DNA of 22,881 nt from a virus (taxonomy: Duplodnaviria; Heunggongvirae; Uroviricota; Caudoviricetes): IMG/VR virus record IMGVR_UViG_2734482777_000003; one strand, written 5' to 3'. Position numbers and translations under genes: made by a program. Numbering within the stretch: the first letter of the stretch is position 1; each line of letters starts with the position of its first letter. The notes beneath the pieces are model-generated. The model saw nothing but the letters and a program-made list of their open reading frames with translations. It was not told the origin of the DNA and ran no database searches. Positions 16,658-22,854 of the stretch are shown one piece after another.

Positions 16658-17187
16658 TGATCTATTCCCCAACAGGCTAATGCGCTTTCCTGGTCACGAC
16701 GAATAACCTGACCGTAACAGTTATTTGAACGAATGCGGCAATCACGGCCACCGTCCTTAATCCACCAGCGAATCGCCTCGCATGCACCTTTACGATCACC
16801 AGCATTCAGCCGCTTATAAAACGTCGACGGAAAACACTTACCGGGGCCAATGTTATAGGGACAAAATGACGCGATACCCGCTTTTTGTGGCTCGGTCAGT
16901 GGTACTTTAATATTGCGCTCCACCCATGCCAGCGCCTTATCACGCTCAATGGCGTTGACCTGGTCGCATTTTTCCTTCGACAGTTTCATACCGGGAAAAA
17001 CGGGTTTTCCATCCACCATCGTGGCACCCCGACAGATGGTCCAGATGCCGGACCCATCGCGGTATGCCGTTGTGTGGTTACCTTCTTTTTCATCCAGAAA
17101 CTGGTCGAGAATATCAGGCGCGGGCGCACCGACGGCAATCAGTGCCAGAACGGCAGCCGACAGGCCGTATCTGATTTTTGCGTTCAT
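16654..17187 (-). CDS. rrrD: SAR endolysin (T4-lysozyme-like, glycoside hydrolase family 24)
   Basis: 177 aa. N-terminal weakly hydrophobic Gly/Ala-rich segment ([17 protein letters not shown]) followed by the E-x8-D-x5-T catalytic triad ([16 protein letters not shown]). Recognised as the E. coli cryptic-prophage RrrD/RrrQ lysozyme family. Confidence 0.85.
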
Positions 17188-18113: not shown

Positions 18114-18188
<75 letters not shown>

Positions 18189-18191
18189 ATA

Positions 18192-18267
<76 letters not shown>

Positions 18268-18269
18268 AC

Positions 18270-18346
18270 TGGACCGCCACCGGGGACTCGAACCTCGCAC
18301 ACTCAACTTAAAGGGTTGACGCTCTTTCCTGATGAGCTAGTGGCGG
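18270..18346 (-). tRNA. tRNA-like gene with non-canonical features (anticodon loop CCUUUAA, formally UUU/Lys)
   Basis: Reverse complement reads CCGCCACTAGCTCATCAGGAAAGAGCGTCAACCCTTTAAGTTGAGTGTGCGAGGTTCGAGTCCCCGGTGGCGGTCCA. Cloverleaf is foldable but has C at position 33, a C1-G72 pair and an A-C mismatch in the T stem. May be an unusual phage tRNA or a pseudo-tRNA. Confidence 0.4.
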
Positions 18347-18347
18347 T

Positions 18348-18423
18348 TGGTGGCCCTTGCTGGATTTGAACCAGCGACCTGGCGATTATGAGTCGCTCGC
18401 TCTCACCACTGAGCTAAAGGGCC
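18348..18423 (-). tRNA. tRNA with CAU anticodon, most like tRNA-Ile2 (ileX/ileZ-like; Met cannot be excluded)
   Basis: Reverse complement reads GGCCCTTTAGCTCAGTGGTGAGAGCGAGCGACTCATAATCGCCAGGTCGCTGGTTCAAATCCAGCAAGGGCCACCA. Anticodon loop CUCAUAA; strong resemblance to E. coli ileX. Confidence 0.75.
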
Positions 18424-21316: not shown

Positions 21317-21709
21317 CTACTGCCCTGTTTTAACGAAGTTTTTAAAGGAAACAACTGCCTGATAGGGGTTTGGTTGACAGCCAAACATATTATCGCAAAA
21401 AGGCTTGATGAAAATTCTTGAGGATCCATCTTCATTTGGCATTTTACTCACTTGATAAGCGAGGAATGGACTATTTGGAGAGGGATTATAAGTGGAAATT
21501 AGCGTGTCTGTCGCCGTTTGAATTTTCCATGAGGAATTATTAGCCAACCAGAATTGCGCTCGTTTCCAATAAAAGTCACATTGCTTTTCATCATTACATG
21601 TTAGTGGCTTCATTGCTTCTGCTTTCAACGCTGGATCGACCTTTGCTGCACACCCTCCCAACATTACTGTTGCAATCATTACACCTGCGACTAAAACAAG
21701 TTTCTTCAT
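21317..21709 (-). CDS. Putative secreted lipoprotein (130 aa) in an AT-rich moron
   Basis: N-terminus MKKLVLVAGVMIATVMLGGC is a signal peptide with lipobox LGGC; Ala at +2; four further Cys. The gene and flanks are visibly more AT-rich than the surrounding phage genes. No family recognised. Confidence 0.6.
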   Translation of the reverse strand: MKKLVLVAGVMIATVMLGGCAAKVDPALKAEAMKPLTCNDEKQCDFYWKRAQFWLANNSSWKIQTATDTLISTYNPSPNSPFLAYQVSKMPNEDGSSRIFIKPFCDNMFGCQPNPYQAVVSFKNFVKTGQ

Positions 21710-21759
21710 CTCCCTGCCCCATCAATAAAAGTTCGGTTCTCTAATAACTAGAGTTAATC

Positions 21760-21783
21760 AACGGAAAAAACGCCGAAGCGGGT
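21760..21783 (-). terminator. Weak hairpin plus U6 downstream of hok
   Basis: Minus strand CCGC-UUCG-GCG followed by UUUUUU, about 70 nt after the hok stop; the stem is short. Confidence 0.3.
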
Positions 21784-21852
21784 TAAGTGCGGGTGCGTTG
21801 AGGATGCCTGACACATCAGAGGTGGCGAGGGATTTCTCCCCCGCCAGGTCTC

Positions 21853-22008
21853 TTACTCCTCAGGTTCGTAAGCTGTGAAGACAGCGACCTCCGTCTGGCC
21901 GGTTCGGATTCGTACCTCGCAGAGGTCTTTCCTCGTTACCAGTGCCGTCACAATGACGGTAATACAGATGACGATCAGGGCGACTAACATCGCCTTTTGC
22001 TGCTTCAT
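21853..22008 (-). CDS. hok: Hok/Gef-family type I toxin (51 aa membrane peptide)
   Basis: MKQQKAMLVALIVICITVIVTALVTRKDLCEVRIRTGQTEVAVFTAYEPEE is recognised as near-identical to E. coli HokD/RelF. The track ORF 21853..22065 is the same frame extended 19 codons upstream. Confidence 0.85.
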   Translation of the reverse strand: MKQQKAMLVALIVICITVIVTALVTRKDLCEVRIRTGQTEVAVFTAYEPEE

Positions 22009-22299
22009 AGCCTGCTTCTCCTTGCCTTTCGGCACGTAAGAGGCTAACCTAGATTTGCCGTTCATAGATTGAGCCTCAGATTAATGTTAAGCGTCTTGCC
22101 GGACGCGTAATGTTAACTGGGGCTTTTCTCTATCTGCCTTTTGGTGTTCATGCCTGAGACAGATAGCCTCAAGCACCCGCTGCAATTCTACTTAACTCTC
22201 CTTTTCCCGCAAACCGTTTTTATCCCCAGCGGCAAATCGAATACACCACCAGCGCCACCGCCATCGCAATTCCTACCGTTGTGAATGCTTCAGGCCAGG

Positions 22300-22854
22300 T
22301 CATCGATTCACCTCCTGCGGCGGTTCTGGTAGAGGCATCCAGTGAGTTGCCTGCTCAATACCATTACCCGGCTTAATCGTTGTTTCTCCTCGCCGAAAGG
22401 TGCTTCCGGTATAGCGTGCTGAGCATATTAGCGGCTCAACCAGATCACTATCGAAATTCACCGAAATAAGCACGTTCTGATTCTTTTCCGGCATTCGCTC
22501 ACTACAGCTTATCCAACCATCCGGAGTTACCGGAGAGCTGGTTGACGTTTCCGAGATTTCCCGAAAATTGTTGGTTGACGAATTCGTATTTCCCCGAAAT
22601 TTTCCGCCATGAAGCACGGCGGCGTTATATCCATCCGCGAAAATCTCTGCTTCTTCGTTATTCAGTTCGGCACCAAGTTTAAGCGCAATAGCTTTTGCCA
22701 TTGAGGCGGTAATTTGATGGCATGGCTGACGTCCGTGAAGCATGGCGTCGCTCCGCTCTATGCCATCCAGCGCAATTCGAAGCGCATGAATTGTAGTGAT
22801 GCAATCGTTTGGGGTTATTCCGTATCGTTCGAATACAGCGATATGGTTGCGCAT
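22300..22854 (-). CDS. Phage protein with DUF551-like C-terminal region; N-terminus may extend beyond the window
   Basis: 184 aa from the first ATG. C-terminal DGWISCSERMPEKNQNVLI...ATHWMPLPEPP is recognised as DUF551-like. The frame stays open through the 9 codons above the ATG to the window edge. Confidence 0.5.
   Translation of the reverse strand: MRNHIAVFERYGITPNDCITTIHALRIALDGIERSDAMLHGRQPCHQITASMAKAIALKLGAELNNEEAEIFADGYNAAVLHGGKFRGNTNSSTNNFREISETSTSSPVTPDGWISCSERMPEKNQNVLISVNFDSDLVEPLICSARYTGSTFRRGETTIKPGNGIEQATHWMPLPEPPQEVNR

Follow-up and report, generated by a model that had tools for sequence, protein, structure and literature searches.

The hok/sok locus is the paradigm of type I toxin-antitoxin systems, and its prophage copies have already been annotated, surveyed and, in part, tested. 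The mechanism has been described for the hok/mok/sok (parB) locus of plasmid R1, in which 19 of the 70 codons of the mok frame precede the hok start, Sok is directed in antisense against the region where mok translation is initiated, and the mRNA uses the pairings tac/fbi, ucb/mok-SD, tac/ucb and SD/dcb (PMC9841398). Sok transcription and instability, hok repression and 3' processing of the hok mRNA were documented for R1 (PMC9841398) and partly for hokW-sokW, which was experimentally shown to act as a type I toxin-antitoxin (PMC8621323). The hokW-mokW-sokW locus of the Stx2 phage 933W and the Sakai prophage Sp5 is prophage-borne, with a mok of 70 aa and a hok of 51 aa in the same frame and ending at a common stop. 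In E. coli K-12 MG1655, mokC (16751..16960) and hokC (16751..16903) also have a common stop, mokC starting 57 nt upstream in frame, and the start of mokC is overlapped by sokC, which runs on the other strand. K-12 also carries hokD (relF) in the cryptic prophage Qin, directly downstream of relBE, annotated as a 51-aa toxic protein devoid of N-terminal extension.

The window analyzed here is a 22,881-nt stretch of prophage DNA. From its sequence, it very probably carries a complete hok/mok/sok cassette of the hokD/hokW clade, which in this reading forms an insert complete in itself, equipped with a promoter and a terminator of its own. This is an ordinary, already known kind of locus with nothing unusual about it, and the hok/sok region finds a match in about 92% of the complete E. 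coli genomes. The cassette lies in the nin region, between the replication genes and Q, among the early genes of a lambda-like (lambdoid) E. coli prophage. An Rfam scan of all 22.9 kb returned one sok-family match only, and hence no second hok/sok copy. The window shares 91.7% DNA identity with 933W from an upstream 27-codon ORF through fbi; the promoter, tac, ucb, Sok hairpin, dcb and fbi are identical in the two, and the sequences following fbi are unrelated. The 933W locus is found near the right genome end, whereas the copy described here sits in the nin region beside a DUF551 gene.

The coding features of the locus are the following.

21853..22008, minus strand: hok CDS, 51 aa (MKQQKAMLVALIVICITVIVTALVTRKDLCEVRIRTGQTEVAVFTAYEPEE), stop TAA at 21855..21853, from the ORF list
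22018..22023, minus strand: hok Shine-Dalgarno AAGGAG, preceding the hok ATG by 9 nt, from the sequence
21853..22065, minus strand: mok frame of 70 codons, which shares the reading frame and the stop of hok, from the ORF list
22074..22077, minus strand: mok Shine-Dalgarno GAGG, preceding the mok ATG by 8 nt, from the sequence

The 51-aa Hok is a member of the Hok/Gef family, as it matched the Pfam profile HOK_GEF (PF01848) over positions 1-42 of 42 with an E value of 1.5e-23 and 82.6 bits, above the curated cut-off of 22, and PHROG 251 ('MokW-like host killing') with an E value of 7e-33. The initial annotation of a Hok-family type I toxin inside a prophage was thus borne out by the Pfam match and the lambdoid context. 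Hok is identical to K-12 HokD at 49 of 51 residues (96%), to HokW at 88%, with a C-terminus reading FTAYEPEE instead of FVDYESEK, and to HokC (gef) at 86%, while the Hok sequences of R1 are distant. Given the identity to HokD and to the tested HokW, the peptide is presumably toxic to the membrane.

The frame of hok is open upstream to an in-frame ATG at 22065..22063, 57 nt before the hok ATG at 22008. The initial annotation had noticed this open frame, which the ORF list confirms, but had considered it unusual, and in this it was mistaken, since 38 of the 59 other loci that were examined have an in-frame ATG exactly at -57. Because mokC/hokC and mokW/hokW are annotated identically, and given these 38 loci, the ATG at 22065 is read as the start of the known mok leader frame and not of an extended Hok variant, one of the two options first proposed; its annotation value is that it should be labelled mok rather than an odd Hok extension. 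We regard it as extremely unlikely that translation from this ATG gives, as the actual product, a 70-aa Hok with an N-terminal extension and that no separate mok/hok coupling exists. Such a product would be in line with a frame that is unbroken from 22065 to the hok stop, since a ribosome initiating at the mok ATG necessarily yields a 70-aa protein containing all of Hok. However, the internal hok SD (AAGGAG) and AUG are kept in 42 of 42 homologues, and the CAAGGAG motif is nearly invariant (alignment A2). Ten of the 59 other loci have their upstream ATG out of frame, at -58, with the same leader architecture, which is likewise unchanged in 3 related loci with the ATG at -56; the amino acid sequence of the extension has hence not been kept as a part of Hok. 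The 51-aa K-12 HokD lacks the extension altogether, and in R1 it is the act of translating mok, not the protein made from it, that matters (PMC9841398). In R1 the mok AUG (116-118) and the hok AUG (174-176, numbering of that paper) are 58 nt apart and out of frame, as compared to 57 nt and in frame here; the comparison with R1 was made element by element from the description in PMC9841398.

Codons 2 to 5 of mok, which also speak against an extended toxin, are the most variable stretch of the locus and differ between the window (AACGGCAAATCT) and 933W (CTGAACACATGT), as do consequently the first bases of the Sok 5' tail. Among 13 close relatives, positions 22062..22052 are about 61% identical, versus about 90% for the rest of the locus. 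This stretch, which would determine how Sok recognises its target and include the Sok start site, could tentatively be viewed as being under diversifying pressure; if true, diversification would prevent cross-regulation between the several hok/sok copies present together in a single E. coli genome. Less likely still, the 70-aa Mok-Hok protein read in frame could be a functional toxin isoform in its own right. The reading of the upstream ATG as the mok start is retained below.

The predicted transcript and the features that flank it are listed here.

21765..22178, minus strand: predicted hok (mok-hok) mRNA in its full-length form, about 414 nt, starting at G22178 and ending in the U-run that follows the weak terminator
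22185..22213, minus strand: putative hok promoter, -35 TTTGCG (22213..22208), 17-nt spacer, -10 TAGAAT (22190..22185), +1 at G22178
21765..21784, minus strand: weak intrinsic terminator AACCCGC-UUCG-GCG-UUUUUU, with a 3-bp CGC/GCG stem, a UUCG loop and U6, from the sequence
22220..22303, minus strand: unannotated 27-codon hydrophobic ORF (MTWPEAFTTVGIAMAVALVVYSICRWG), with an AGGAGG SD and an ATGA overlap with the DUF551 stop
22300..22854, minus strand: DUF551 gene, upstream of hok (E value 2.3e-22)

Transcript ends, both promoters of the locus and the 3' processing site are predictions throughout. The 5' end of the hok mRNA was placed according to position 1 of the Rfam model and to the -10 box located 7 nt upstream. 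The hok promoter is identical in 933W, and its -10 box aligns with the TATAAT of K-12 hokC. A consensus scan of 21700..22400, with a simple sigma-70 pattern for the promoters, called no promoter or terminator; the two promoters, read from the sequence, and the terminator deviate from strict patterns, so that their identification relies on homology and position. The weak terminator noticed after hok in the initial annotation is indeed there, with its 3-bp stem. Most relatives possess a stronger CCCGC-UUCG-GCGGG-UUUU terminator (-12 to -16 kcal/mol), in which GG has changed to UU in the lineage of the window, and the real 3' end of the transcript may be heterogeneous. As for the leader, which had been described as about 290 bp of non-coding DNA, the spacing is correct (291 nt from the hok ATG to the DUF551 stop at 22300), but it does not correspond to a single non-coding leader: it is made up of a 170-nt mRNA 5' leader (22178..22009), the last 57 nt of which are mok coding, the hok promoter and the 27-codon ORF.

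A covariance-model search for Sok RNA gave a match to Rfam RF01794 at 22178..22003 on the minus strand, spanning model positions 1-157 of 157 with 112.4 bits (gathering score 59), but on the hok-sense leader strand. This model is in the sense of the hok mRNA and also matches the hok-sense strand at 933W hokW and at K-12 hokC (118 bits). The Rfam 'sok' match thus designates the hok leader, and the real Sok gene lies on the opposite strand, where the following features were placed.

22057..22127 (about), plus strand: predicted Sok RNA, about 71 nt, ends transferred from sokW (933W) and sokC (K-12) (alignment A1)
22022..22050, plus strand: putative Sok promoter, -35 TTGCCT (22022..22027), 17-nt spacer, -10 TAACCT (22045..22050), +1 at G22057

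The antisense Sok that had been expected is thus present at the sequence level, on the basis of the sokW/sokC coordinates, of its fold and of covariation in its hairpin, and a putative cis-antisense gene with promoter, 5' tail, hairpin and U-tail can be delineated. The predicted RNA begins with 14 unpaired nucleotides (the 5' tail), which are complementary to the mok AUG region; a long hairpin follows, which would serve as terminator and has its 5' arm over the mok SD, and the RNA closes with a U4 tail. It folds with -29.9 kcal/mol (z -4.9), and its hairpin, which is 18 nt shorter in the K-12 hokC copy, covaries across the 42 homologues. The complement of the Sok -35 box, GGCAA, is invariant in the 42 homologues, as is the mok SD GAGG, and the position of the promoter relative to mok fits the annotated 5' ends of sokC and sokW.

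The leader and the 3' region contain the regulatory elements known from R1.

22167..22178, minus strand: tac, GGGUGCUUGAGG, at the hok mRNA 5' end, pairing with fbi in the full-length form or with ucb in the shortened form
22119..22125, minus strand: ucb (anti-SD), AAGCCCC, pairing with the mok SD region in the full-length form or with tac in the shortened form
22040..22045, minus strand: dcb, AGCCUC, which in the shortened fold pairs with GAGGCU at the mok SD
21824..21845, minus strand: 3'-UTR stem-loop GGCGGGGGA-GAAA-UCCCUCGCC, present in both predicted folds
21791..21803, minus strand: fbi, CCUCAACGCACCC, forming 12 pairs with tac in the MFE fold

Apart from mok, tac, fbi and ucb, for which a search of the leader had been proposed, dcb was recovered as well, and all are supported by the sequence, the folds and 42 homologues. 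The four pairings that characterize a hok/mok/sok locus (tac/fbi, ucb/mok-SD, tac/ucb and mok-SD/dcb) were found in the predicted MFE folds. The full-length mRNA folds with an MFE of -162.2 kcal/mol (z -6.1), tac and fbi closing the 5' and 3' ends and ucb lying over the mok SD. The fold of the 3'-shortened mRNA (z -5.4), for which the 3' end at 21818 was our choice rather than a mapped site, contains tac/ucb and mok-SD/dcb. By analogy with R1 (PMC9841398), the 3'-UTR stem-loop would be expected to protect the active mRNA at the 3' end left by processing.

These pairings were examined across 42 homologues, all chosen because an fbi could be recognised in them; they come from Escherichia, Shigella, Kluyvera, Citrobacter, Pantoea and Photorhabdus. 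Overall, 87.1% of cells were paired, as compared to 39-46% with slid partners, and 35 pairs were altered on both sides versus 10-22 with slid partners. The tac/fbi helix was paired at 92%, a value that is partly circular since the sequences were chosen for an fbi-like match; this does not apply to its compensatory changes, three pairs being changed on both sides and covariation being seen across genera (U-A to C-G in 10 sequences, G-C to A-U in 5). Compensatory changes were also found in the helix of the 3'-UTR stem-loop (88.9% paired). The tac/ucb helix was 99.7% paired in the 42 sequences with no variation. In mok-SD/dcb, a helix also present in the Rfam consensus, five of the six pairs were 100% paired in the 42 sequences and U22072-A22045 was a standard pair in only 4 of 34. 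As tac/ucb and most of SD/dcb never vary, they are indicative of conservation and not of covariation.

A mechanism can be proposed in which the sequence elements are those of this locus and the steps are drawn by homology with R1 hok/sok. A weak constitutive promoter would produce the mRNA of about 414 nt from G22178. In the full-length RNA, 5' tac would pair with 3' fbi and ucb would mask the mok SD, so that neither ribosomes nor Sok could act. Slow 3' trimming to the 21845..21824 hairpin would remove fbi, after which tac would pair with ucb and the mok SD would enter the dcb stem, giving a translatable and Sok-accessible form. Translation of mok, from its in-frame start 57 nt upstream, would then open the hok start region, and the Hok produced would insert into the inner membrane and kill the cell. 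In normal cells, short-lived Sok, made from a stronger promoter, would use the 14 nt of its 5' tail to bind over the mok AUG and SD, block mok translation and trigger cleavage of the duplex. Hok would be made only once Sok transcription stops, be it that the DNA is lost, that an infecting phage shuts off transcription or that the prophage is induced.

Most K-12 chromosomal hok copies are remnants, and the Qin copy illustrates this. It is 97% identical in DNA to 22022..21765 (hok SD, CDS, 3' hairpin, fbi and terminator), the homology starting at the hok SD and stopping exactly at 21765, and the sequence downstream is of the same type (DUF968/YdfU then Q). In contrast to the window, Qin hokD lacks the hok promoter, tac, ucb, the mok start, dcb and the Sok RNA region, and its terminator is the strong GCGGG version. 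Qin hokD is thus a derived state that keeps only the equivalent of 22022..21765. In K-12 hokC, tac and ucb are identical to those described here, but no fbi is recognisable and an IS186 flanks the locus. With these two examples at hand, and with a weakened terminator of its own, the present locus might be seen as another decayed, non-functional copy. We consider this highly unlikely: promoter, tac, ucb, mok SD and ATG, dcb, hok SD and ATG and the open ORF are all undisrupted, as are the 3' hairpin, fbi and the Sok promoter and hairpin, the Rfam match spans the full model, and neither IS element nor frameshift is present in the locus. As an intact copy compared to the truncated Qin hokD, the cassette is a fair candidate for studying the benefit of hok/sok to a lambdoid prophage.

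Two roles were envisaged for this intact cassette. One, which is conceivable though short of probable, is addiction or stabilisation by post-segregational killing, or abortive infection upon phage-driven transcription shut-off. Post-segregational killing is the established role of plasmid-borne R1 hok/sok (PMC9841398), T4 plating was lowered by R1 hok/sok according to a citation in PMC8621323, and hok was reported as about four-fold enriched in prophages by a survey which, on the other hand, found no enrichment near defence systems (bioRxiv 10.1101/2025.08.07.668861); moreover, a single-copy chromosomal prophage is seldom lost by mis-segregation. The other role, which we put forward with some reserve, is that of a lysis helper as in Sp5, the loss of Sok during the SOS response leading to membrane damage by Hok and to a greater release of phages. 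For hokW-sokW, experiments showed Sok loss after mitomycin C, RecA-dependent HokW production, help in lysis and a two-fold increase in phage release upon induction (PMC8621323). The high identity to the 933W region is consistent with such a function, as are the apparently complete late genes of the prophage (structural, terminase, lysis), judged by annotation of a 98.3%-identical relative. However, the location in the nin region differs from the right-end position in 933W, and the Sp5 effect is modest and comes from another lineage.

Regarding the neighbourhood, the initial annotation had rightly pointed to DUF551 in place of the relBE of Qin; the contrast is real, but it is Qin that represents the derived state. 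The 27-codon ORF between DUF551 and the hok promoter was found by tblastn in 93 records of the phage collection (about 56-100% aa identity), at full length in 91, and the ORF, with its SD and junction, is also retained where the upstream genes differ. Searches of Pfam and PHROG matched the 27-aa product to no family. Its being a part of the hok module was considered, as its start is where several homology blocks stop and as it also precedes hokW in 933W, but was rejected, since ArgO145 and YYZ-2008 have this ORF without hok.

The hok locus of the window is a genuine hok/mok/sok cassette, undamaged, wholly conventional and already known. The 51-aa Hok ORF proposed in the initial annotation was recovered in the ORF list and gave a full-length match to Pfam HOK_GEF (E 1.5e-23) as well as a match to PHROG 251 ('MokW-like host killing'). 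The protein differs from K-12 HokD/RelF by two conservative changes, I9V and L16I, both in the membrane segment. The elements of the locus are as follows.

21853..22008, minus strand: hok coding sequence, 51 aa (protein MKQQKAMLVALIVICITVIVTALVTRKDLCEVRIRTGQTEVAVFTAYEPEE)
22178..22009, minus strand: 5' leader of the hok mRNA, ending in 57 nt that code for mok
About 22213..22185, minus strand: predicted hok promoter
22220..22303, minus strand: 27-codon hydrophobic ORF (MTWPEAFTTVGIAMAVALVVYSICRWG) with a perfect AGGAGG Shine-Dalgarno (SD), its ATG overlapping the DUF551 stop (ATGA)
22300..22854: DUF551 protein gene, upstream of hok
G22057 to near 22127, plus strand: predicted Sok RNA, 71 nt, transferred from sokW/sokC
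22022..22027 (TTGCCT) and 22045..22050 (TAACCT), plus strand: Sok promoter boxes read from the sequence, with a 17-nt spacer

The toxin frame is indeed open up to an ATG at 22065, giving an ORF of 70 aa, but this layout, previously considered unusual, is not. In curated K-12 MG1655, mokC (16751..16960) and hokC (16751..16903) have a common stop and differ by a 57-nt in-frame extension, with sokC on the opposite strand across the mokC start; in the annotation of phage 933W, mokW (213 nt) and hokW (156 nt) likewise end together and sokW is antisense across the mokW start. Another 59 hok loci, 54 taken from a collection of species-representative genomes and 5 serving as references, were sorted by where their upstream ATG lies: it was found exactly 57 nt before hok and in frame in 38, 58 nt before and out of frame in 10, and 56 nt before in 3; eight loci, including truncated Qin-type hokD copies, had none at -56, -57 or -58. 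The out-of-frame class corresponds to R1, in which mok starts with the AUG at 116-118 and hok with that at 174-176 (PMC9841398). In this clade, then, an in-frame ATG is the most frequent arrangement, and on sequence grounds ATG 22065 is mok. In an alignment of 42 homologues, the mok frame tracks single-base indels in the mok-hok spacer (e.g. GG-CAAGG versus GGTCAAGG), consistent with the published conclusion that what counts is translation of mok and not the Mok protein (PMC9841398). The most variable stretch of the locus, 22052..22062, covers mok codons 2-5 and, on the other strand, the Sok start site and the beginning of the tail by which Sok recognises its target, with about 61% identity among 13 close relatives that are ~90% identical overall. 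Such variability may prevent cross-reaction between hok/sok copies that share a genome.

The '290 bp non-coding leader' initially described does contain the hok mRNA leader, with its 57 nt of mok coding sequence, but it also includes the predicted hok promoter and the 27-codon ORF. The Rfam covariance model RF01794 ('sok') aligned in full with minus-strand positions 22178..22003, scoring 112.4 bits against a gathering score of 59 (E 3e-25). The model consensus runs from GGGUGCUUGAG to the hok AUG, and its matches lie opposite the annotated sokC in K-12 and sokW in 933W. What the window match identifies is thus the sense strand of the hok mRNA leader, and Sok is encoded within it on the opposite strand. 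Although named 'sok antitoxin', the family is built in hok-mRNA sense, from tac to the hok AUG, and its match strand taken literally would mis-orient the Sok gene. The predicted hok promoter consists of TAGAAT, 7 nt before G22178, and TTTGCG, another 17 nt upstream. Both boxes are identical in 933W; in an alignment with the 933W hokW and K-12 hokC loci, TATAAT of hokC aligns with TAGAAT.

The 27-codon ORF was found in 93 phage records with about 56-100% amino-acid identity, at full length in 91 of them, and gave no family match in Pfam or PHROG searches. Its length, SD and ATGA junction are kept behind differing upstream genes and it occurs with or without hok downstream, so that it is a separate, generally unannotated small gene, probably a real membrane-peptide gene skipped by annotation pipelines. 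It does not belong to the toxin system.

Fold computation on the predicted 414-nt hok RNA (22178 to 21765) gave z = -6.1. The fold-back elements sought in the leader were present: tac, the 5' twelve bases (GGGUGCUUGAGG), pairs with fbi (CCUCAACGCACCC, 21803..21791), and ucb (AAGCCCC, 22125..22119) pairs over the mok SD GAGG (22077..22074). When the RNA was cut at 21818, a position of our choice rather than a mapped site, the minimum-energy fold switched to the published active form, with tac paired to ucb, the mok-SD GAGGCU paired to dcb AGCCUC (22045..22040) and a hairpin (21845..21824) near the new 3' end. This switch agrees with the R1 description (PMC9841398) and with the Rfam consensus structure. 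Among 42 distinct homologues from six genera, the full-length structure was 87.1% paired, versus 39-46% with partners slid by 1-3 columns, and 35 pairs changed on both sides, versus 10-22 when slid. These homologues were chosen for a recognisable fbi, which inflates the tac/fbi paired percentage and leaves unaffected its compensatory changes (U4-A to C-G in 10 sequences, G12-C to A-U in 5). In the tac/ucb helix and in five of the six SD/dcb pairs, pairing is complete and there is almost no variation. This is expected, since each of these elements has to pair with two partners, but it provides no covariation evidence. The terminator (21765..21784, minus strand) is weak, as first noted: a GG to UU change in the window and its nearest relatives leaves a 3-bp stem, whereas most relatives carry CCCGC-UUCG-GCGGG-U4+. 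The change is common to relatives with the same post-fbi sequence (E. coli 042, OkiPb01676, O177:H21) and might let transcription run on into the gene that follows.

The expected antisense Sok is predicted across the mok start by carrying over the annotated sokW and sokC 5' ends through the 933W/K-12 alignment, together with its promoter boxes and fold (-29.9 kcal/mol, z -4.9 for 71 nt). It would begin with a 14-nt free 5' tail (GCCGUUCAUAGAUU) that can pair with the mok AUG and first codons, continue as a long hairpin with its 5' arm over the mok SD and end in a U-tail; three hairpin positions show compensatory change from A-U to G-C in the 42-homologue alignment. From this element-by-element match, we are highly confident that the window copy would follow the R1 mechanism. 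The sequence does not choose between roles as lysis helper, addiction module or abortive-infection defence in the prophage.

The window comes from a lambdoid E. coli prophage, of which it covers the late and early-right part, and every gene lies on the minus strand. In strain OkiPb01676, a prophage of 98.3% identity adjoins potB, in the order tail, head, terminase and lysis genes, four tRNAs, Q, RusA, DUF968, a small hypothetical gene, a 130-aa hypothetical gene and hokD, upstream of which are DUF551, further genes of the nin region and, beyond them, P, O, cro and cI. This order places hok in the nin region, in the orientation of the early-right operon, and the DUF551 neighbour was confirmed. 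The 130-aa ORF directly downstream of hok (21317..21709, minus strand) has a lipoprotein-type signal with an MLGGC lipobox, matches PHROG 16082 (unknown function) and no Pfam family, and its N-terminus faintly resembles Cor superinfection-exclusion lipoproteins, nothing more. Between Q and the holin gene (18114..18423, minus strand) are four tandem tRNAs, Gly-UCC, Thr-UGU, Lys-UUU and one with a CAU anticodon, called Met by ARAGORN and Ile in the RefSeq annotation of a near-identical prophage.

K-12 Qin hokD matches only 22022..21765 (97% identity), that is, the hok SD, coding sequence, 3' hairpin, fbi and terminator, and the relE end lies 71 nt upstream of it. The Qin copy is thus derived by truncation; the intact form is that of the window. 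The closely related hokW-sokW of Sp5/933W (91.7% DNA identity) is a working type I toxin-antitoxin system; after mitomycin C, Sok is lost, HokW is made and phage release is doubled (PMC8621323). A 701-bp query around the locus matched 4993 of 5426 complete E. coli genomes, with a median of 2 matching places in each and a maximum of 12, and the locus region is matched by 182 phage records and about 1600 plasmids. A recent survey reported Hok in about 80% of Enterobacteriaceae genomes, with a four-fold prophage enrichment (bioRxiv 10.1101/2025.08.07.668861). An E. coli-type hok/sok region (96.7% identity) is also present in PP818812.1 (13104..13646, 'Actinobacillus phage vB_Apl-pPE4'), an unexpected location, since the phage is named for a Pasteurellaceae host, and one that may be due to contamination or to a wrongly assigned host.
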